Below, in pieces: positions 10,842 to 23,225 of a DNA stretch of 64,000 bases. The DNA lies in contig CAWGMA010000002.1 in NCBI GenBank assembly GCA_963823555.1, forward strand, positions 480,001 to 544,000, given 5' to 3'. Numbering within the stretch: position 1 is the first letter of the stretch; every line of letters starts with the position of its first letter. The translations under genes and the position numbers were made by a program. The DNA is from Candidatus Eiseniibacteriota bacterium. Lineage in GTDB: Bacteria; Eisenbacteria; RBG-16-71-46; CAVPCR01. The notes beneath the pieces are model-generated. The model made no database searches. It saw nothing but the letters and a program-made list of their open reading frames with translations, and was not told where the DNA came from.

Positions 10842-12938
10842 TCAAGGGCCTTCGGTCCGGTCCAGGAGCGCCGTGACCCGCTGATTTCGGGGGTTGAGCT
10901 CGCGGGCCTGGAAGAGGAGTGCTCGGGCGTCCGCCACTCGATCCTGCTCGAGCCGCACGCGGGCGAGATCGAAGAGGAGGGTCTCGTCATACGGTCGCAG
11001 GGCGAGTCCGGCTGTGAACTGCGCCTCCGCTTCATCCAGCCTTCCTGCCTGAAGCAGCCAGCGACCGTAGTTGCGCCGCGCCTCCGGAATCTCGGGAGCG
11101 AGCGCCACGGCCCGAGCGAAACCGGTGCCGGCCTCCATATCGCGTCCCAGCTTCATGAAGGCGATCGCCCGGTTCATGTGCCCCATGGGCTCGCGCGGCG
11201 CGATCGTGAGCATTCTCTGATAGTGCTCGAGCGCGTTCGCCGCATCTCCACGGTCCAGGTACTCGCCAGCCGTCTCATCCTCATGGCGAACGGCTCGCTT
11301 GCGGATCGCTTCGCCGCCGGTGGCGGCGAGAAGCAGGACAACCGCGGCGATCAAGACTCGCCGCGCTCTCGGGCTCAGCGCCATCTCCTTGAACTCGAGC
11401 GCGACGAGCCACGCCGGAACGAGTACATAGGGCGCGATCTTGAGCGCATGCAGCATCGGGGTGGCGAGCAGCAGAGGATCGTCGTACTCCGGTAGGAGGA
11501 AGGCGATGGCCGTGGCCCCGGCCATCCCGGCGGCCGCCAGACGGTGCCGCCGGGCGAGGAGTGGCAACAGCATGAGCTGGACTATCGCGTAGTAGCTGAA
11601 CCAAGTCTGGACCAGCCAGCCGGTCGCGGCCAGGAGGAGAAGCGCCCGGCGAGGCAATGCCGTCGCGAAATCAGTGTCGCTGCGTTGCAGGAAGAGCAGA
11701 GCCAGGAAGAACAAGGCCGCAGCTGGCAGCAAGACGAGCAGGGGAGAGCTGTAGATGCCGGCGATCATCAACAGCTGACTGAGACTCACGCTGTTGAGCA
11801 GGTAACCTTTGGTCTGGAACTGGGCGAAGATCTTCTCGGAGAATTCGAGCCACGACCTTCCGCTGAGGAGGGCGAGACTTGCGAGAACAACGACACCTAG
11901 CCCGCACCAGACAAGAAGACGGCACGACCAGCGGGCGGCGGGTGATTCGCCCGGCCTGCGCTTCCGCACCCATGCAGTTCGCAGCAGCCGGCAGCCAGCG
12001 GGGAGGGCGAGGATGAATGGAAAGAGCTTGATGAGCCCGGCCCAGGCGATGGCGACCCCGGCGGCCGGCGCGTGCCGCCGCCGCATGGCGAGCAAGGCCA
12101 TCGCCACCGGCAGCCACATCCCGGCAAAGATGAGCCCGGGCAACGCCCAGCCGACGAAGTCCCACGAGGCAAAGAGCAGGGCGGAGATGGCCAGGCGCCC
12201 GTTCGTGTCCAGACCTAGAGCGAGCCCCGTTGCCCAGGCCATGACAAGCGCCGCGAGGATCTGCCAGCCCAGGTTTAGCCATGCCGTCTCGCGGCCGAAA
12301 GGTCGATGCAGGGTGGGGTCGATCCGGCGCACGAGCGCGTAGAGCGGGGAGCCGTTGAAGCCGTAGTCCCAGGTGATGTTGCGGCCTTCGGCCCTGATGT
12401 TCTCCTCTGCCCTCTCTATGATCAGTGCTCGGTGCACATCACCGCGAAACTCATCGATCTGATCGGCGCGTAGGTTCTCGCGCAGGATTCGCTCGGCCTC
12501 ATCGCGCAGGGCTCCGCTCTCGTCGGCGCGCCGTCTCAACTCCGCCAGCGGAGCGAGCGGGTCGAAATCGCCGCCTCGATCGCGCAGGAGGCCGATGTAG
12601 TAGGCACGCTGAGCACGCGGATCCTCGCGCACGACCGCCGGCGGGTGGTCGAGATCCCGCATCCCGACTTGGGGACGCTCCAGTGAAGCGTTGATCAACT
12701 GGTAGAGACTGCTATACGGGAACGAGTACTTGGCGCCGAGGTAGTAGTGAACGACGTTGATATTGACCAGATTCCTCGGCATGAGGCTGATGGCGAGCGC
12801 GTTGGCGAGGCCGAGGACGAGCAGCGCAAGCCAGGCCAGGCGCGCCAGGCGGGGCCTGGGCCGGAGGGCCAGGAGAGCCCCGCCCGCGGCCATGAGCGCC
12901 GCGCAGACGGCACGGTCATCGAGCGACCAGGCAAGCAT
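10842..12938 (-). CDS. Polytopic membrane protein, GT-C (GT87/DUF2029-like) glycosyltransferase candidate, with C-terminal TPRs
   Basis: Many hydrophobic segments; HYYLGAKY after the N-terminal TMs; IKLFP (KxxP) motif. C-terminal TPR helices (AEAQFTAGLALRP, ARELNP). Confidence 0.6.
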   Translation of the reverse strand: MLAWSLDDRAVCAALMAAGGALLALRPRPRLARLAWLALLVLGLANALAISLMPRNLVNINVVHYYLGAKYSFPYSSLYQLINASLERPQVGMRDLDHPPAVVREDPRAQRAYYIGLLRDRGGDFDPLAPLAELRRRADESGALRDEAERILRENLRADQIDEFRGDVHRALIIERAEENIRAEGRNITWDYGFNGSPLYALVRRIDPTLHRPFGRETAWLNLGWQILAALVMAWATGLALGLDTNGRLAISALLFASWDFVGWALPGLIFAGMWLPVAMALLAMRRRHAPAAGVAIAWAGLIKLFPFILALPAGCRLLRTAWVRKRRPGESPAARWSCRLLVWCGLGVVVLASLALLSGRSWLEFSEKIFAQFQTKGYLLNSVSLSQLLMIAGIYSSPLLVLLPAAALFFLALLFLQRSDTDFATALPRRALLLLAATGWLVQTWFSYYAIVQLMLLPLLARRHRLAAAGMAGATAIAFLLPEYDDPLLLATPMLHALKIAPYVLVPAWLVALEFKEMALSPRARRVLIAAVVLLLAATGGEAIRKRAVRHEDETAGEYLDRGDAANALEHYQRMLTIAPREPMGHMNRAIAFMKLGRDMEAGTGFARAVALAPEIPEARRNYGRWLLQAGRLDEAEAQFTAGLALRPYDETLLFDLARVRLEQDRVADARALLFQARELNPRNQRVTALLDRTEGP

Positions 12939-12968: not shown

Positions 12969-15900
12969 TTACTGCGTCCCTCCGGGCTTCGCCGGCGCCT
13001 GGGTCGCGGTCGGCTTGACCTCGGGCGGCTGGGTCAGCGCCTTCCGCGGCTTCTTGACCTCCATGTCGGGTCCGGTGTGGCACTGCACGCAGAGCGTCCG
13101 GGCCTTGCCGTGGGTCAAGAGCTGCGGGATGTCGCCCGAATGCGGGTTGTGACAGGACGAACAGGTGATCGGGTCTCCCGTCCGCGGGTCGAGGTCAGGA
13201 CCCGTGAAGGGATGCGAGTGCTTCTCCGCCGGGTTGTGGCAGGTCGAGCACAGGTTCTCCTGCGAGTCGACGAGGATCCCCTTGGTCTCGCTCCCGTGCG
13301 GGTTGTGGCAGTTGAGGCACTCCGTCATGCCTGGATGCTGCACCTTGCCCGTGAAGAGCTTCCGGTCGTGACAGGAGAGACATGTCTGCTGAACGTCCTC
13401 GCCCGAGAGGAGCTTGGCCGTTCGCGCCACGTGCGGTGAATGGCACGAAACGCACGCCTCCTGGGTCTTGAGCGGGGCATGAACGACCGCCTTCTCGGCG
13501 TCCTTGGCGTGGTCGTCGTGGCAGGCGGCGCAGAGGGCGATGCCCTCGGCCACGAGCCCGGTCTTCCCGGCGTGGCACGACTCGCAGCTCCCTTCGGCGT
13601 AGGGGGCATGCGCGTTGGCGAGCATGAGCCCCTTCTTCCCGGAGCCGTGCGGATCGTGGCACGAGGTGCAGTCGCCGGATCCGGCCTGGTAGCCGCGATG
13701 GGCCGTCGTGAAGGCTGAGGTCTTCGTGTCGTGGCACTTGGCGCAGCCCTCGCGGATCGAGGTGGCGAGGAGCCCCTTCACCGCGCCGACATGGGGTTCG
13801 TGGCAGGTCGTGCACTCGCCCGCGCGCGCCGGCTGATGGGCGTTGGCGCCACTGGCGCGCTCGGTGACATCCTTGTGGCAGTCGGCGCACAGGCCGGGAA
13901 CCGCCTTGGCGAGGAGGCCGGGCATGATGCCGTCGTGCCCGCCATGGCAGGTGCGACACTCGCCATCGCGCACGGGAGAGTGCACGAGATCGGGCTCGGC
14001 GGTCGCCACTTGCGTCACGACATCGCCATGGCAGCCGGCGCAGAGCCCCGGAGTCGCCTCCTTCAGGAGCTTCTCGGTGCCCGTGGCGTGAGCGTTGTGA
14101 CAGCTCGAGCATTCGCCCATCTCGACCGGGGCGTGCAGCGTGCGCCCCGCCGGCTTCTCGATCGCCCCATGGCAGGAGCCGCAGAGCTCCGCCTCGACGG
14201 AGACGAGCTGCGGCTTCATGCCGGCGACCGCTGGCTTGTGGCAGGTCGAGCAATCCCCTTCGGCGAAGGGTGCGTGCTCGGCGAACTGGATGAGGCCGCG
14301 CTTGTCGCTGCGGTGCGGGTCGTGACACCCGGTGCAGGAACCGTCCTCGACCACGAACTCGCGGTGTGCCTTCTTGAGCTCGCCCGAGCTCGGATCGTGG
14401 CAGGAAGAGCACGCCGCCGCGAGGCGGATCTTGCCGTCCGCGTCCTTGGTCTTGTGGCCGTCGTGGCAGGTCAGGCACTGGCCTTGCTTCACCGGTTCAT
14501 GGACCACGCCGACCGCGACGCTGTCGCGCATCGCCGTGTGGCAGGAGAAGCAGAGGTCGGAGCCCGTCTTTTGCAGCAGGCCTTTCGCGCTCTCCGACGC
14601 GTGCGGGCTGTGGCAGGAGCTGCACTGGCCGGCGGCGAGAGGTTCGTGCATCTCCGCCGTGGTCACGTTGGCGGCGACATCGCCATGACAGCTTCCACAG
14701 AGCTCACCTTGATTCGCCGTCAGGAGCTGCTTCTCGGTTCCGGCGTGCGGCAGGTGGCACGTCGCACAGCCCTCGGTGAAGGGTGGATGTTGAGCGGCGA
14801 GCTGTCGCTCATCGAGCTGCGCCGGGTGGCATCCGATGCACATCCGGAGCTCGGTGGTGCGGAGAAGACCGGCGTTGGCCGCCCCGTGGGCGTCGTGGCA
14901 CATGTTGCACTGCCCCGCATAGAAGGGCAGGTGGACGACCGGTTGCTCGAGCTGGGTTGCGACCTCGCCGTGACAGGTGCCGCAGGTCTCATCGAGCGTC
15001 GCCTTCATGAGGAAGGGCTCGCTGCTCGCATGGGCGCCGTGGCAGGCGTCGCAGTCGCCCTCCATGGGCGGGTGCTTGACTGCAGCAGCCGCGACCGCAT
15101 CGGTGACACCGGTGTGGCAGGACCGGCAAAGGGCCTCGACCGGCTGCCGGAGCATGGCTGCGCCACCACCATGGGCGCCGTGGCACTGGTCGCACCGGAA
15201 CTCCTTGAGCGGCGCGTGCACGGAGGTCTGCGCCAGCTGATCCCGGATCCCGCCGTGACAGGCGAGACAGAGCTCCTCGCCGCTCCCGCGCAGGAGCCCT
15301 GGCCGCTCCGCGTTGTGCGGCGAGTGGCACTGGAGGCATTCACCGGCGGCCGCCGGCGGATGCCCTCCCGCCGCCATCGCCACGTCCTTCACGTCCGAGT
15401 GACAGGTGAGGCAGAGCTCCTCGCGTGAAGCGACGAGCGCCTCCGGGTTCGCCGGGAGCCCCGAGTGACAGGTCGCGCACTCGCCCTGGGCGTAGGGCGC
15501 GTGGACATAGGAGCTGCCTTCCTCCGCACTGCCGGCGTGCGGATCGTGGCAGGATGAGCAGGATGCGCCCGCCACTTCAGGTCGAGCATGGAGTTCCGGC
15601 AGCTCCGTCGCTTGACCGTGGCAGCGGGCGCAAATCTCCTTCTCGGGGGCGAGAAGCAGCTTCGGCGGCCGGGGCGTCATGGGGCGCATGGCAGGCGGCG
15701 CAGTTTCCCTCGGCGAAGGGCGGGTGCTGCTTCTCGGCCTTGAGCGCGGCACCGATCTTGGTGTGGCAGGCGGCGCAGGCCTCCGCGGTGCTCGCTCCCC
15801 GCATCAGCCCCTTCACGTCCGAGGCATGCGAGTCGTGGCAGGAGGCGCAGCTCACCCCCTCGATCTCGAGATGCTGGGAGACGGCTCCCGGCGTGGCCAC

Positions 15901-16188
15901 CACGTCGCCATGACAATCGGTGCAGAGCTGGGGGAAGTCCTTCTGCAACGTGAGCTTCTGCTCGAATCCGTGACGCTTGTGGCAGGACTCGCAGTCCTCC
16001 TTCTTCACCGGGTCGTGCACGATCTTCTTGTTGTAGGCCTCGCGGGCATCCTTGTGGCATTCGTAGCAGGGCCGCCCGGCCGCCTGTGCGTCCCGATCCC
16101 CAACCATCAAGAGGAGACCGGCGGCGACGAGTGCCCACAGAATGCACGCGGCTCCGGAACCCACGACGCCACGGGCGCGCGCGATCAT
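12969..16188 (-). CDS. Giant periplasmic multiheme c-type cytochrome, 42 CxxCH motifs (~1070 aa); one frameshift near 15670
   Basis: Signal peptide MIARARG...AQA plus 6 CxxCH in the 15577..16509 frame, then 36 CxxCH in the 12969..15752 frame (hand count). Alternating HxP..G.CxxCHxPH / LL....LCxxCH paired-heme repeats. Confidence 0.93.
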
Positions 16189-16742
16189 CACTTTTCCTCC
16201 TTCGTGACAGTGGGGGGCACGGAGGGGGAGTCCGCCTTGTAACCGTTCACCTCCTTGAGCTGGAAGCTCCAGAAGGAATTCGGGGAGAAGTGGGGCGGGA
16301 AGTTCTGGAATGCCCAGGTCGAATCCACCGCCCCCGAGTCCCCATAGACATAGATGTGTACGGCCGGGTTGTTGAGCGCGCTCGAGGCGCTCAGGAACTG
16401 GCCTTGATCGATGATGAAATCGGGAAGGAAGCGCGTGACCCTGGCGCTGAACTCGGTATCTCCGATGTAGAAGGTCTCGTTCAGGTGAACCCGGTTCTCC
16501 TCGCGCCACTCGGGATAGAGCCGGCTGCCGGTCACGATCGAGAACGTGACGCTCGTATCGACCTCACCCCCGGCCGCGCGCACGGCGTCGGGAGCGGGGA
16601 CCATCGTCGAGTCGGCGAGGATGGCTGTCTCCTCCGCGGCCGGGGCGACCGGTCCGGGAAGCGAGTGGGGTGGGGTTTGCGCTCGCCCGGCCCAGCCCCA
16701 GAGGACGAGGAGCAAGCTCGCGCCGAGGGTCCAGGTCTTCAT
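16188..16742 (-). CDS. Small exported protein (DUF2155/ResB-periplasmic-like)
   Basis: Signal peptide MKTWTLGASLL...GRA; motif RVTRFLPDF...SASSALNNPAV. Its stop overlaps the cytochrome start (GTGATG). Confidence 0.65.
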   Translation of the reverse strand: MKTWTLGASLLLVLWGWAGRAQTPPHSLPGPVAPAAEETAILADSTMVPAPDAVRAAGGEVDTSVTFSIVTGSRLYPEWREENRVHLNETFYIGDTEFSARVTRFLPDFIIDQGQFLSASSALNNPAVHIYVYGDSGAVDSTWAFQNFPPHFSPNSFWSFQLKEVNGYKADSPSVPPTVTKEEK

Positions 16743-16746
16743 GCCT

Positions 16747-17387
16747 TCACTCCGTGCTTCCTGTGGTCTGGGGGGTGGCGCCACGTCCGGCCCCCCCGGT
16801 GGTGGGGAAGGTCTCGAGCATCTCCTGCACGGCGATCGTCGCCATCTGCTCGAGGCTCTGCACGCGGCCGAAACCGAAGACCGACTCGCCATCGCCCCCG
16901 TCACGGCTGTGCACCGCGCTCCACAGCACGCGCCCGCCTGGGGTCTCGAGCAAGCGGAGCGAGAGCGAGATCTGGGGGATCATCTCCCCCTCGAACTGCC
17001 GGGTCGTGTAGCCGGTCAGCGATCCCACCATGATCGCGTTGGCGCCGAGCTCCTGCCCGACCGAGTCCACGAGGTCGGGGAGGCGATCGAGCATGAGCCA
17101 TGGCTCCTTGGCGAGCGCGGCCTGTCCACCTCGCCCTGATCCACGATCTGAACCCCCGGCTTCTGCGCCAGCTCGACCGTCAGGATCGGCAGCACGCGAT
17201 CGGCGGCATCGCGGTTCGAGGTGTAGTTGGCGAGGGGCAGGATGGCGATGCGCCAGGTTCCGGCCAGCGGCTGGGCGATGTAGACCTGTGGTTTGGGCCC
17301 GCATCCCGCCAGCGAGGCGAGAAGGCGAGCTGCGACCACCGCCAGGGCGGCAAGCGAAACTCGATGCGACCGATCGTGCGCTCTCAT
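16747..17387 (-). CDS. Lipoprotein, CsgG/PelC/GNA1162-like alpha/beta fold; frameshift near 17122
   Basis: Lipobox LAGC then RIAILPLANY in the 17016..17933 frame. Continues as ELGANAIMVGSL...ISLSLRLLE...GRVLWS in the 16747..17304 frame. Paralog of the upstream gene. Confidence 0.8.
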
Positions 17388-17388
17388 G

Positions 17389-18000
17389 TCACTGTCCCTG
17401 CGGCAAGGTTGACAGGATATCCCGCGACATGTCCGCGGTGAGCTCGCCCATGGTGTGCACCTCGCCGAAACCGAAGATGGGGAAGCCCGGTCCGCCACGC
17501 CGGGTCCGGCTCCCGGTCCACACGATGCGACCGGATGCGGTGTCCACCAGCCGCACCTCGAGCGAGAGCAGGGGGTAGCTGTCGCGTCCCACTCGCTCCA
17601 TCGTGTAGTCCCGCACCGCGCCCATGAAGACGCCCTGGACTCCCATCTCCTCGCCGAGCCGCGCGAGCTCCTCGCTCGACCAGGGGTTCGTGACCGGAGT
17701 GCCGCCCCGCAGCGCGAACATGGAGGCGACGAGCTGACCCGGTTCGACGACCTGGGCGAACCCCCTGCGCAGGAGCTCCGTGAAGAAGACGTCCGCGACC
17801 TTCTGCCCGGCGAGCTGATCCTGGGCCAGGGAGTTGAACGGGGCAACGGCCACCCGCTCGTAGTAACCGAGATCGGCCTCTTCATCCACGAAGTGGGCGG
17901 GCCCCGCACAGGCGGAGACGAGAAGGGCCACACAGAATACGGCGCCTATCCCCCTCAGCGACTCCACCCGGCGAGCTCTGTCTGTCCTCTTTGTCTTCAT
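17389..18000 (-). CDS. Lipoprotein, CsgG/PelC/GNA1162-like alpha/beta fold
   Basis: Lipobox VSAC; RVAVAPFN, EMGVQGVFMGAVRDY, LSLEVRLVDTASGRIVW. Confidence 0.85.
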   Translation of the reverse strand: MKTKRTDRARRVESLRGIGAVFCVALLVSACAGPAHFVDEEADLGYYERVAVAPFNSLAQDQLAGQKVADVFFTELLRRGFAQVVEPGQLVASMFALRGGTPVTNPWSSEELARLGEEMGVQGVFMGAVRDYTMERVGRDSYPLLSLEVRLVDTASGRIVWTGSRTRRGGPGFPIFGFGEVHTMGELTADMSRDILSTLPQGQ

Positions 18001-18030: not shown

Positions 18031-19685
18031 TCAGAAGTCCTTCTGCAAGTTGGCGGAGTAGTAGCGGCTCCGCGGCCCGTTCTGCTGCTCCACCTGCTGC
18101 GTGCTCAGGAGCACGCGGAACTCACGGGGCAGCCAGAAACCCAGATCGAAACCAAAGAGTCTCTCCTCGCTCTCGAAGGACCGCAAGCGGGAACGCCGGC
18201 GCTCCCAGTTCGCCGCCAGCGTGACCTCGCGCGTGGCGGTCCATGAGGCGTTGAGGCTGGTGACGTTGTCCACGCGGATGACGAGCCCCTCGGCCGTATC
18301 GCGCCGGTGGGACGCCACGAAGCTGAAGTTCTGCGTCGGGTTGTAGCCGAGCAGGAGGTCCCACTGCCGCGTGCCCTGGCGCAGCCCGGCGAAGTCGGGC
18401 TGGGAGAGACGCGTCCAGGTGATGTCGAAGCGCGTCGTGGGTACCGGTACCGTGCGCAGCTGGAGGAGCTGGCGCGACTGATCGCGGCGGATATCGGTGC
18501 TGCTGTCCCGCTGGTAGCTCGCCTCGGCCCGACCGGCCATGCCGCGGAGGATGGGTCCGTCCAGCATGGCATAGACCGAGTTGGTCGGGATCCCGGCTCG
18601 GTTCTCCGAGCTGTCCTTGATCCGCTCCGTCCTCCGGAAGCCGGCCAGGAGCTCGACGCGCCGCCAGACCTGGTCACGGAATGTCGTCTCGAAGCGCAGG
18701 TAGTCGGCGATCAGGCGCCCTTGCACCTCGTTCGTCTGCCGGTAGTCGCGGGCCAGCTGGAAGGTGAGCGGCACGATCGGCTGGTACTGGACGCCGGCGC
18801 TCAGGAAGGTCTCATCGGTATCGATGGGCAGGGGGAAGGCGTTGTCATCGGTGGACTGCCAGCGCTGGAGGGCGGTTCCGAAGAGGGAGACCGAGCGCGC
18901 GGGACGCCAGTTGAGGGCCGCATTGATGCGATGGGCCTCGAGATCGCGGCGTCGCTCGCGGGCGCTGAAGTCGCTCAAGAGGACATCGTAGTCGGCGCTC
19001 AGACTCACTCGCCTGATCGTCGGTCCGGCCCCGGACTCCGGCGCGCAGCTCCTCGGTGACCTGATCGACGCCGTTGGGCCGCCGGTCATCCGCGTCGATG
19101 CGCCGGAGGCCCACGAATCCGCCCACGTCGTCGGTGCCATAGGAGAGTTCCGCGCGACGGTCGTCGTTGGCCGAGGGGCCGAGGCCGATCTCGCGCTCGC
19201 GGTGCTGCCATTCGGCAAAGAGGTTGGGAAGATTGCGGGGCGTGACCCGGACATTGATGTAACCGAAACGCTCCTTGGCCGGGTCGGGGCCCGGCGACAC
19301 CTCTTGCCACGGTGTGAACTGACCTTCGAGGCGCCAGGTCTGGGCGATCAGCTCCCCCTGGAATCGGTAGCGGAAGACATCGCCGTCACTCACTCCCAGC
19401 TCGCTCAGGTAGCGCAGGAACGCGCGCAGCCTGAGGTCGAGCCCGGCCGGGGGTCGTGCCCCGCGTCCACATGTCGAGCTGATGCTGCATGGTGTCGATG
19501 GTCTGATCGCCGAAGATCGTCGTGCCCGTGAGATCGTTGCGTGTGATGGACCCGATGTAGCGACCGTCGATCTCCATCCCCCTGGCGGGCAGCGCGACCA
19601 TCGCGACCAGCGAGGAGCAGGCGCAGATCACGAGCGGGATCGCGATCTTCCTTCCCGGTGCGCTCCATCGCCGGCCTGGCATCAT
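18031..19685 (-). CDS. Outer-membrane beta-barrel protein (~550 aa); frameshifts near 19450 and 19020
   Basis: Signal peptide (...AMVALPARG). Amphipathic beta-strand pattern across three joined frames; C-terminal YYSANLQKDF ends in Phe. Confidence 0.8.
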
Positions 19686-19689
19686 GGGA

Positions 19690-20871
19690 TCAGTACCCGA
19701 TCTCGATCCCGCCCGGTTCACCCGAGGCCGGCCGGTGGACGTTGAACCCGGTGGCGCTCGAATAGTCGCGGCCGTGGCAGTCGTGGCAGCCCTGGGTCGC
19801 CGAGGCTCTGTGTGCGCCTCCTGGTCCGAGATCGCGTTCATGACGATGCCCTCGACCGTCTCCGAGTCCCGGGATGCCGTCCGCCGGGATGTGGCAGCCG
19901 AAGCAGAAGCGGCGGTTCTGCTCGGCATCGCCAGGGTGTCGGTGAGGCCGCTCCAGCCGACGACGCTGATCGCTGATCAGGAAGGCGTTGGGCTGCGACC
20001 CGATTGTTGCCCTTCGGAACCGTGCGGGTTGTGGCAGTCGTAGCAGGGCAGCTTGTCGCCGACCTGGATGTGCGGCCGGCCAGGAGAGGGCGACGTTGGA
20101 GTTGCGACGGATCTGGTGGCCGGCCGACGCTCGCCGTTCAGCCCGCTGTCGTAGTAGTCCTCGATGTAGCGGTTCTCGGTGATCCATCCCGGACGGACCG
20201 TCGGCGCCGTGGCAGGAGAAGCAGAGGCCGTAGCTCGCCGGTGGCGCCCGATCCCGGCGTGGCCGCTGATCCCGCCATAGAGGGCGACCAGGATGTCGCG
20301 CGGGTTCTCGGTGCCGTGCGGGTCGTGGCAGTTGAGGCAGAGGCCCTGCCCGGCCGCGTCCTGGCGCGGCATGTCGGGATCGTGTGGCGTGCGGGGAGAT
20401 CGTAGTGGCCGGCGGCGGTGACCCGCGGGTCGGTGTAGACGACCTCTCCCGGCCAGCGTCCCCGGAACTCGACGCCCGCGCGCCGGATGCCGCCCGCGTT
20501 GGCCTCGAAGTAGCCGGCATCGGGCTCGGTGTCCGGCATGCGGTCGATCTCGCCGAGCGGGTAGTTCGTGGGCCGGGACTGGTGACAGGGGCGGGCGCCG
20601 TCGGCCCAGAAGGCCAGGCGGTTGGTCGTTCTCGGTGAAGAGGTTGCTGGCCGAGGGGGACGCGCCGGCATCAGCCTCGTGGAACGCGTGGCACTGCGTG
20701 CACTCGCCGCGCGTGGGCGATTCGGTCACCTCGCGGAGGACACCGGTGGCGGGATCCCCGTGCGGATCATGGAGGAGTTCCTGTGCCAGTGACCCAGGCG
20801 GTCAATCCCAGGACCGCCGTGAGGACCATGCCGGAAGTGGTCTCACCGGTCGCTTTCATCGGCCGAAGCAT
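19690..20871 (-). CDS. Exported multiheme cytochrome c (6 canonical CxxCH plus one degenerate site); multiple frameshifts
   Basis: RBS GAGGGA and ATG 20871, hydrophobic leader, then HDPHGDPATGVLR...GECTQCH. CLNCH, CFSCH, CYDCH, CFGCH and CHDCH follow, spread over several frames. Confidence 0.75.
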
Positions 20872-20977
20872 GTCCCTCGTGGATGTCCTCGGCGACTGCG
20901 ACGATCGCAGGAATGCCACGAGATCAGGTCCGGGCGCCGACCATGGCCGGAGTGTCGGCGCCCGGTCCGAGGACGGG

Positions 20978-21004
20978 GAGCCCGGAGCGCTACCGCCCGG
21001 GCTC
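20978..21004 (-). terminator. Stem-loop immediately 3' of the OmcS-like gene
   Basis: GAGCCCGG-A-GCG-CTAC-CGC-CCGGGCTC inverted repeat 17 nt downstream of the stop. No U-tract. Confidence 0.5.
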
Positions 21005-21021
21005 GTCGACGTCAGGCCGAT

Positions 21022-22130
21022 CTACCAGGGATCGCGGTCGCCACCCTGGCGGTGGCACTGGCGGCAGCTGTTGCGAGCGTCGAGCGCCGTCGTCGCCCTG
21101 CTCCGTCACCGTTCCGGTCCCGACCATGTAGATCAGGCCGAACGCGTTCTGGTTGCCGTGCGACTTGTGGCACGACATGCAGGACGGGGTGAGCTCGGTG
21201 TCGGTGCCGTCGTAGCCGGTGGCCGAGCCGTAGGGCTTCGGCTTCTGGCCGGTCGGCGACATCACCTGAACCTGGTTGCCCTTGGCCGACGAGCGGTGGC
21301 GAGCGAGGAGTGCCCGCCGCCAGCGGCGCCGATGTTGACACCACCGGACGGGTGACGGACGAACTCCTCCGCCGGAGCGCCGATGCCGCCGATCTCGGGA
21401 CCGCCCACGTCACCGTGGAAGTTGGTGTGGCAGTTCTTGCAGCACGTTGGCGTAGGCCGACTTGCTCTGGTCAGGCTCGTTGAACGTGATGGCCCCGACG
21501 CCGTAGTGGTTGGCGTTGGTGCCACCCGAGACGTCCTCGTAGACCCAGGCGCCGAGGTCGTTCGCAGCCTCGACGTCACCGCGGGTGTAGCTGATGCTGG
21601 TGGACGTCCCGCCATCCACGAACAGGTTCCGGTAGCCGCCCTGGGCCGCATGGCTCCGGTCGAGCCGCGGCGTCCGACCGTGAACGGAGTGGCAGTTGGC
21701 GCAGTTCAGGCCATCCGGGTTGGCGAAGGTGCCGCCGGGAGCGATCGTCCGTCGAGCCGAGCGTGTGCCCGGTGGGCGGCGGATACAGGCCGTTCCCGCC
21801 GACCTCGTTCAAGGCGCCCGCCTGCCGGACGTAGCCGTTGCTGTGCGCTTCGAAGACGTCCGGAGCGAACGCCTGCCCGTCGTGACAGCCGAGGCAGAGA
21901 TCGTTGATGTCGTTCCGGAGCAGGTAGTGGTACGGGCCGTCGGCGCAATGGGACCATAGTTGCCCGTGCCGTTCGGGTTGTAGCCGTGCGACTGGCTGTA
22001 GTGCATGACATGGCAGTCCTGAGCAGATCAGGCCGACCCCGAAATGGTAGTCGCCGGCGAAGCCGACGGCGGCGAATGCCACCATGGCCAGCCCGACTCC
22101 CATCGCGGTCAAGAGACGCTTTAGGTTCAC
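21022..22130 (-). CDS. OmcS-like hexaheme outer-surface cytochrome (~370 aa); multiple frameshifts
   Basis: RBS AGGAGGT, GTG 22130, signal peptide. Reconstructed: GDYHFGVGLIC(S/Q)DCHVMHYS...YLL...LCLGCH...GHTLG..APGGTF...LNCANCHSVH...GGYRNL...CKNCHTNFH...RHP...CMSCHKSHG...CRQCHRQG...W-stop. Confidence 0.8.
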
Positions 22131-22165: not shown

Positions 22166-23225
22166 TCAGGGCTCGGCCGTCGCCGAGTCCTCCGGATTGG
22201 ACGGAAGGCCAGAGAGTTCCAGGTTGATGACCTGACAGCGGGCACCAGCCCGTTCCAGGACCACCAGCTGGTCCTCGGCCAGAAATGCGCAAGCGGCCGG
22301 GTAGTAGAACTCGCCGGGTCCCTCGCCATAGCCCCCGATGCGCCCGCGATACCCGCCCCGGGAATCGAAGATGCTGATCGAGTGCCGGATCGTATCGGTG
22401 ACCCAGAGGGTGCTCTCCGGGCCATAGACGGCGTGGACCGCCATCGAGAACGTGCCGTCGCCGTCGCCGTGCTCTCCGAACTGGGCGAGGAGCGAGCCAC
22501 CGATCGTGTAGACCGAGATCTGGTACTTGGCCTTGGGGTCGGTGATCGCGATCTCGGTTTCGTCCGGGTTCACGGCAATGGCGATGGGGCCGATCCAGGC
22601 GCCGGTGTCCGTCTCGGGGAAGCCGAGCTGCCCCACGAAACTTCCATCGTGCTCCAGGATCATGACGCCCGAGCGAGCGCCCGAGCAAAGGAGGTAGATG
22701 CGACCGCTCCTGCCGATCGCGATGGCCGAGGGCCTGGTCTGGCCCTCGAGCTCGGCAGGAAGAGCGGGGTGCAGGATGCCGAGATGCGAGCCGCGGGGGC
22801 TCAGGACCTCGACATCGGCATTGGTGGCATCGACGACGAACATGCGGCCGCGGCGATCCAGGGCGAAGGAGGCGGGGTCGACGATGCCGCCCGACGCGTC
22901 CCATGGGGTCGTAGCGCACGGCGCCGCGCGAGCGCCCCGTCTCGTCGAAGGTGACGATGCGGCTGTTTCCGGTGTCGGAGACGAGGAAGACCCCCCGCGC
23001 CGAGTCGGCGGCGATGCCGCGGGGCCGGCGGAAGACGTCCAGGGCCGAGGGGCCGTAGAAGATGGTCTCGACGGAGCGGATGGAGGGGGCAGCAGAAGAA
23101 GCCTCATCGCCAAGCGCGCCATGCGCGGGGGCGGTGAGGCTCAAGATCGCGAGGAGGGCTCCCAGCGGGAGAAGGAGGCTCTTCGACGCGCGGTGACCCA
23201 AGTCTGCGTTTCCCCTGCCAATCAA
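22166..23225 (-). CDS. NHL-repeat beta-propeller protein, exported; frameshift near 22905; start uncertain
   Basis: FRRPRGIAAD...VSDTGNSRIVTFD, QFGEHGDGDGTF, WVTDTIRHSISIFD, IGGYGEGPGEFYYP. Hydrophobic leader LLLPLGALLAILSLTAPAHG. Confidence 0.85.

Follow-up and report, generated by a model that had tools for sequence, protein, structure and literature searches.

A predicted 42-heme c-type cytochrome combining OscI-type and OscJ-type halves in an Eisenbacteria operon with an OmcS-like cytochrome

The 42-motif gene and its relation to OscI and OscJ

The stretch of DNA analysed here (the window; 64,000 nucleotides of contig CAWGMA010000002.1 from a Candidatus Eiseniibacteriota bacterium) carries on its minus strand an operon that runs in the order NHL β-propeller, OmcS-like hexaheme cytochrome, second hexaheme cytochrome, outer-membrane β-barrel, two lipoproteins and a 184-aa protein, and that ends with the gene of main interest, a multiheme c-type cytochrome gene at 12969–16188. 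As assembled, this gene occupies two minus-strand frames: frame A runs from an ATG at 16188 to a stop at 15577 and has six CxxCH motifs, and frame B, open from stop to stop over 15803–12969 (944 aa), has 36, the counts that an initial annotation of the sequence had given. Relative to the ortholog from the same genus (genome G001), which is intact, 1078 aa long and 70% identical, the window has one extra base at ~15,663–15,666. Read through this break, the protein has ~1072 residues, a mass of ~134 kDa and one heme motif per 24.6 residues of the mature chain; 2000 shuffles of it yielded a mean of 0.55 CxxCH motifs and a maximum of 5. The density of about one heme per 25 residues behind a Sec-type signal peptide, as first annotated, is thus borne out, the leader ending in AQA. 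An AAGGAGG ribosome site precedes the gene, and its start overlaps the stop of the upstream gene (TGATG). From the sequence we infer that the gene encodes one secreted cytochrome, with export via Sec and covalent heme attachment. That it is a single open reading frame (ORF) in the source organism, as the initial annotation had it, is supported by orthologs and not by the organism's own reads, namely by the intact same-genus ortholog and by 48 database homologs with exactly 42 motifs.

The predicted chain is modular. The junction motif CxxCHDPH...HAP(Y/F)A(E/Q)G.CxxCH is present after hemes 8, 25 and 34, as previously described, with a gap of 11–12 residues, not 7. Across the 63 intact proteins used for the histidine analysis, 42 non-motif histidine positions are conserved, most of them in 60–63 of the 63, and two histidines in the loop after heme 40 are found at their modal offsets in 50/63 and 46/63. 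Because there are 42 conserved extra histidines for 42 CxxCH motifs, every heme would be bis-histidine (bis-His) ligated and the protein, hence, would have no catalytic site. The traits of catalytic multihemes such as NrfA, HAO and ONR (a heme without a distal histidine, or a CxxCK-type site) were not found in it, and fold matches to catalytic multihemes are weak (Z ≤4.5). No non-motif histidine occurs in the linkers that follow hemes 9, 26 and 35, and two occur in each linker that follows heme 8, 25 or 34, so that blocks of 9, 17, 9 and 7 hemes, as well as the 26- and 16-heme halves, would each be self-sufficient for ligands. The modularity proposed initially therefore stands, but its 8/17/9/8 boundaries each lie one heme too early, judged by the number of histidines and by the point at which the gene is naturally split (see below). 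The best-scoring internal diagonals join hemes 1–9, 18–26 and 27–35; these three paralogous modules agree with the segmental duplication proposed at first, and are consistent with a nine-heme module having been duplicated within the protein.

Desulfuromonadales loci have adjacent genes for 26- and 16-heme cytochromes, each with its own leader. The 26-heme homolog class shows the pattern of hemes 1–26, and when the linkers were scored at every offset, 10/10 pairs aligned best with the 26-heme member beginning at heme 1 and the 16-heme member beginning at heme 27. The corresponding genes of Geobacter sulfurreducens would be oscI and oscJ, the latter of which (GSU2494) we take to have 16 hemes; for OscJ-type genes this count comes from the loci fetched in this analysis. 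GSU2495 and GSU2494 are named oscI and oscJ, and described as periplasmic and part of the osc operon, in PMC13194489, and GSU2495 is given 26 hemes in PMC12977616 and PMC2996986. The agreement in summed heme count (26 + 16), spacing and register of the junction motifs supports the view that the 42-heme protein is an OscI-type and an OscJ-type cytochrome in one chain, much as the initial annotation had suspected when it proposed a fusion of the separate large multihemes of Geobacter-type clusters. Whereas OscI and OscJ are encoded by two adjacent genes, the window form is one polypeptide with one signal peptide. A crude lipobox pattern is present in only 2/48 fused proteins, compared with 21/41 26-heme proteins, and the fused cytochrome is therefore probably soluble in the periplasm.

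The one-ORF state was found in G001 and in 16 of the Eisenbacteria loci that were cut out. A tree of 114 rows has four changes between the fused and split states, two of them forced. Several origins of the fusion were considered and had no support from the approximately unbiased test (p 0.085; p 0.47 and 0.52 on 39 chosen rows); a single origin is not rejected, and the trees, being unrooted, accommodate fusion first and fission first alike. Trees of the two halves recover the same well-supported groups, with deep branches unresolved. Three Desulfuromonadia genomes that had appeared to hold fused forms (G212, G236 and G244; loci L054, L053 and L055) have two genes, of 26 and 16 hemes, in the same frame with a stop and a short leader between them, one step from fusion. 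DFE_0461/0462 of D. ferrophilus were dropped as homologs, DFE_461 being described with 14 heme sites (a judgement made on the description).

The homolog search gave 213 matches, of which 120 were listed and used for motif counts. Among these 120, 51 are ≥1000 aa in length, with exactly 42 motifs in 48 of them, 40 in one and 35 in two; the 48 keep their 42 motifs at ~35% identity. Source names include Zixibacteria, Krumholzibacteria, Latescibacterota, Gemmatimonadaceae and the FCB group. In the window's phylum, 73/206 genomes match the 42-heme protein at E ≤1e-40, 46 of them with one continuous, approximately full-length match, which alone is no proof of a single ORF. The Eisenbacteria loci cut out comprise 16 with an intact 42-motif ORF, three split into 26 (25 in one case) + 16, four that are frameshifted or incomplete and two at a contig end. 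In Desulfuromonadia, 41/151 genomes match, and each of the 13 loci cut out has two separate genes, with 15 hemes instead of 16 in one case. The 42-heme protein is common in its lineage and no isolated case.

Three features of individual homologs are recorded here. Six Zixibacteria-type proteins (P0002, P0005, P0010, P0021, P0034 and P0044) share a conserved insert of ~20 residues after heme 21, possibly a partner-binding hairpin, which is missing from the window's protein and from the split forms. P0093 and P0098 (~1030–1060 aa, 35 motifs) have another block pattern and belong to a second giant paired-CXXCH cytochrome family. In family f8 genomes (L017:493-1557, L064 and L065), a 10-heme cytochrome gene directly follows the 42-heme gene.

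The osc-type system is already known, and the fused 42-heme form is a variant of it. The fused form was not found in the literature searched, a search that did not include the main osc paper (Shen et al. 2025), and as far as that search went no homolog of this heme count and architecture had been characterised already. Forty-two hemes is no record: the maximum motif count reported for three Geobacter genomes is 34–37, whereas PMC11492766 lists giants with 53, 69 and 113 motifs along with 27-heme OmcA/OmcG/OmcH-type wires. These giants, like the present protein, are long single-chain heme wires predicted from sequence; they are, however, mostly lineage-specific outliers or extracellular, whereas proteins of the window type keep to 42 motifs in several phyla and belong to a defined operon. 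Growth of multihemes by fusion and fission of heme modules is described in bioRxiv 10.1101/2025.05.29.656830.

The operon and its counterparts

The genes of the cluster, in coordinate order, are as follows.

12969–16188, minus strand: 42-heme c-type cytochrome gene, ~1072 aa including the signal peptide, with OscI-type hemes 1–26 and OscJ-type hemes 27–42
16188–16742, minus strand: small secreted protein of 184 aa, no Pfam family; its stop overlaps the cytochrome start
16747–17385, minus strand: lipoprotein 2, weak LpoB/DUF4136-like match, one frameshift at ~17,120
17389–18000, minus strand: lipoprotein 1, DUF4136-like, intact, homologous to the GNA1162-like lipoprotein of Geobacter-type clusters
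18031–19660, minus strand: outer-membrane β-barrel of ~540 aa, predicted to have 28 strands and no plug; two frameshifts, start approximate
19690–20840, minus strand: second hexaheme cytochrome, 14 single-base indels relative to G001, start approximate
21022–22121, minus strand: OmcS-like hexaheme cytochrome, 6 single-base indels relative to G001
22166–23225, minus strand: NHL β-propeller, first gene of the cluster, one frameshift

The OmcS-like hexaheme is a distant relative only of OmcS: a profile of eight orthologs matches OmcS (6EF8) at E 1.5e-8, and single-sequence searches gave no match. In a Geobacter-type locus (L052), the hexaheme matches OmcS at E 2e-113 and is followed by genes for a propeller lipoprotein, a barrel, two lipoproteins, a SurA/peptidyl-prolyl isomerase (PPIase), the 26- and 16-heme cytochromes and an NHL protein, an arrangement that matches the osc operon. 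The osc operon and the window's cluster are alike in the end position of the cytochrome(s) and in having an NHL propeller, an OmcS-family hexaheme, a barrel and two lipoproteins. The SurA/PPIase gene (by position, OscH) and the propeller lipoprotein gene (by position, OscD), both present in L052/L050, are absent between the window's cluster genes, where alone they were looked for. Other differences from the osc clusters are a barrel of ~540 rather than ~750 aa, a shorter second lipoprotein and the extra 184-aa protein. The last occupies the position of the SurA/PPIase gene of Geobacter-type clusters, and its gene stands directly upstream of the fused cytochrome gene in compact clusters (14 loci); its best Atlas match (0.89), to an unnamed cluster, is a lead only. 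A second Eisenbacteria cluster type (L024, L086–L088) keeps the PPIase gene and has the fused cytochrome. The ~750-aa barrels of Geobacter-type loci were not picked up by the barrel profile, and orthology of the window's barrel with the osc barrel consequently rests on position.

Among the 206 genomes of the phylum, profiles matched the OmcS-like cytochrome in 68 and the barrel in 61. Leaving out three weak, short barrel matches, 58 genomes have a strong barrel match; the cytochrome is present in 55 of these and lies within 5 kb downstream in 50, a pairing that is co-inheritance among non-independent kin and not a statistical test.

Certain Desulfuromonadales clusters (L030–L039, L048, L049, L053–L055) have the same barrel–lipoprotein–PPIase–26–16 core; the cytochromes encoded upstream of it have 12 hemes, and those downstream have 5 motifs and are weakly OmcS-like. 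At 10842–12938 on the minus strand of the window, starting 31 bases past the cytochrome stop, lies a gene for a 698-aa membrane protein with C-terminal tetratricopeptide repeats; it was rejected as a member of the cluster, G001 lacking it at that place.

Proposed function of the 42-heme protein

We consider it likely that the 42-heme protein is a non-catalytic periplasmic wire that delivers electrons from respiration to the outer-membrane module of the same operon. The hemes would form a chain of closely stacked MtrA-type pairs, with the N-terminus facing inner-membrane donors and the C-terminus facing the barrel and the OmcS-like cytochrome. Structural comparison, made with a model of the G001 ortholog, gave MtrA as the sole clear match (E 1e-7). 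Model residues 842–1025 superpose on MtrA 144–333 (Z 11.4, root mean square deviation (rmsd) 3.6, 170 aligned). Hemes 40 and 41 correspond in alignment to A9 and A10 of MtrA, and their connecting loop, which is one of the best-conserved linkers, corresponds to MtrA 282–313. The 42-heme protein also scores 427.5 bits on TIGR03508 (cut-off 192.2), through its repeats. Its likeness to MtrA (Shewanella, PDB 6R2Q) includes the paired-CXXCH, peptide-poor, bis-His architecture as well as the superposition of the C-terminal hemes. The differences are that MtrA has 10 hemes against 42, that the window protein has one more heme past the A10 equivalent, that it has three extra nine-heme modules with the junction motif, and that the partner of MtrA/MtrB is MtrC, whereas that in the window is OmcS-like.

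MtrA is 80 Å long with 10 hemes, according to PMC7198977; by extrapolation, a 42-heme chain would measure up to ~365 Å if straight. Since the periplasm is ~170 Å wide (PMC11492766), even a bent chain could cross it. The periplasm-spanning wire of the initial annotation is, then, consistent with the all-bis-His anatomy and the MtrA-like fold; the overall shape of the model is unreliable.

Several points weigh against this proposal. The model has a mean predicted local distance difference test score (pLDDT) of 80 and a predicted template-modelling score (pTM) of only 0.55, and the length and straightness of the heme chain are estimates. Orthology with the osc genes is judged from related loci, by the order of the genes, their heme counts and their register. 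No measured function for OscI, OscJ or the fused form was found in the literature searched. In G. sulfurreducens, a GSU2494 (PccJ) mutant was like the wild type, according to a table in PMC9248073 citing Aklujkar 2013, and oscJ is reported as frameshifted in an anode-adapted lineage in PMC13194489; the C-terminal (OscJ) part is therefore dispensable in that organism. PMC13194489, citing Shen et al. 2025, also gives the OscE/F/G barrel–lipoprotein complex as proposed to secrete OmcS.

A sharper form of the wire reading, which we regard as possible but doubtful, is a porin–cytochrome conduit, in which the MtrA-like C-terminal tip would sit inside the 28-strand barrel, as MtrA does in MtrB, and hand electrons to the OmcS-like surface cytochrome, with the other ≥30 hemes running across the periplasm. 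Of 48,161 chains compared with the barrel model, made from the G001 ortholog (pLDDT 96, 28 strands, no plug), MtrB matches best (Z 16.6, rmsd 8.1, 416 aligned), ahead of a second chain at Z 14.8, and in Foldseek the TM-score is 0.53 for MtrB and ≤0.41 for others. As in the MtrA/MtrB system, the operon encodes a large barrel, here predicted to have no plug. On the side of the cytochrome, hemes 40 and 41 fall on A9 and A10, and the conserved loop between them falls on the region of MtrA that is exposed at the outer mouth of MtrB, residues 284–306 with heme A10 being left exposed according to PMC7198977. Barrel and cytochrome also travel together in the Desulfuromonadales clusters with different upstream cytochromes. 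However, large barrels resemble one another by size alone (many rows have Z 12–15, at 7% identity and rmsd 8), the predicted strand number is 28 as against 26 in MtrB, the relation to MtrB is undetectable in sequence, and comparison of the barrel with Pfam and NCBIfam gave no MtrB-family match. A permanently plugged barrel could not secrete OmcS, as is proposed for OscE/F/G in PMC13194489, and the barrel gene is three genes upstream of the cytochrome gene, not adjacent. A complex prediction of the barrel with residues 805–1045 of the G001 ortholog (score 0.00, mark 0.32) was counted neither way.

It is similarly tentative that electrons cross the entire envelope along one 42-heme polypeptide, whose tip would plug the MtrB-like barrel and pass them to the OmcS-like surface cytochrome, with >30 hemes spanning the periplasm without soluble shuttles. 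Were this so, the osc barrel would be an electron conduit, more than a pore for OmcS secretion; in Geobacter, OscI would dock with OscJ end to end; and hard-wired extracellular electron transfer would be present in about one-third of Ca. Eisenbacteria genomes and in Zixibacteria, Krumholzibacteria and Latescibacterota.

It is unlikely that the protein is, instead, an electron store (a periplasmic capacitor) or a helper that keeps the OmcS-like cytochrome reduced during folding or secretion. Such roles would suit the 42 hemes held in ~134 kDa, the constant presence of the gene in the operon of a nanowire cytochrome and its proposed secretion machinery, and the lack of phenotype on loss of GSU2494 (PMC9248073). 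A store, however, has no need of an exact count, yet 48/51 long homologs among the matches listed have 42 motifs and the split forms keep 26 + 16, which points to a fixed length or geometry; in addition, a terminal fold like that of MtrA suggests a terminus that docks in a defined way.

The periplasmic wire remains the reading we favour, and it bears on the open question of the electron path across the periplasm to OmcS nanowires. A natural fusion with a fixed number of 42 hemes suggests that OscI and OscJ form one continuous chain in a set order, in which the last OscI heme would lie next to the first OscJ heme. Uncultured lineages from sediment and soil that carry the gene are likely to be electroactive, and the gene offers for study a genetically encoded heme wire of up to ~35 nm.

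The break at ~15,666 and other multiheme genes of the genome

The initial annotation had joined the two frames across one frameshift. The single break holds; the P placed before KLLL, however, belongs to the shifted frame, the same-genus ortholog reading HDAPAAKLLLAPEKEIC at this site. Frameshift-aware alignment of the cluster with G001 gave 26 single-base indels, of which one was later dropped, leaving 25; a frameshift called at 16,617 in the small gene was dropped because the ORF is uninterrupted there and no gap appears in a 99%-identical contig. The frameshifts affect 6/8 cluster genes; elsewhere in the genome, a tblastn method of lower sensitivity gave 8 switches over 162.6 kb, in 6/108 genes, a contrast that an error rate common to the whole genome does not explain. 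Twenty of the indels are packed into 2.2 kb (19811–22022, covering the two hexaheme genes), against ~0.05/kb elsewhere, which would reflect either low local quality or local decay. Single-base indels packed together in this way are typical of a poorly polished long-read patch, and the frameshift at ~15,666 is most likely a local consensus error.

Recent decay of the whole gene set, whereby the frameshift would be real and the 42-heme protein not made in this organism, is in our view rather improbable. In its favour are the concentration of indels just described and the dN/dS values, 0.26–0.58 in the other broken cluster genes as against 0.08–0.23 in intact neighbours, which leave room for decay (a control ORF, g16989, with dN/dS 1.43 was dropped as a probable wrong-frame ORF). 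Furthermore, position 15,666 is bridged by no contig or read among those listed, which are relatives' contigs from four runs; no sequencing run matched more than 16% of words, and no RNA run was listed. Set against decay are the complete absence of in-frame stops in ~3150 aligned codons, the retention of all 42 motifs and the dN/dS of 0.26 for the 42-heme gene itself. The indels are all of a single base and mostly confined to the 19.8–22.0 kb patch; relatives' short-read contigs lack those at 20788, 21442, 21746, 21945 and 22022, although they have further indels of their own; and other assemblies with few or large contigs (L060, L061 and L065) break the same gene at other places along its length.

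That two proteins, of 6 and 36 hemes, arise via a stop and restart or programmed frameshifting is highly improbable, for although only two open frames exist as assembled, the 36-heme frame lacks a signal peptide, the break falls within a histidine-balanced module while the natural split comes after heme 26 with a new signal peptide, no slippery run was found at the break, and the same-genus gene is intact.

The source genome has four cytochrome-maturation (PF01578) genes, one of which, at C4:287435, adjoins a second multiheme cluster outside the window (C4:289620-301988) whose ORFs have 4, 14, 9, 5, 11, 11 and 6 CxxCH motifs.

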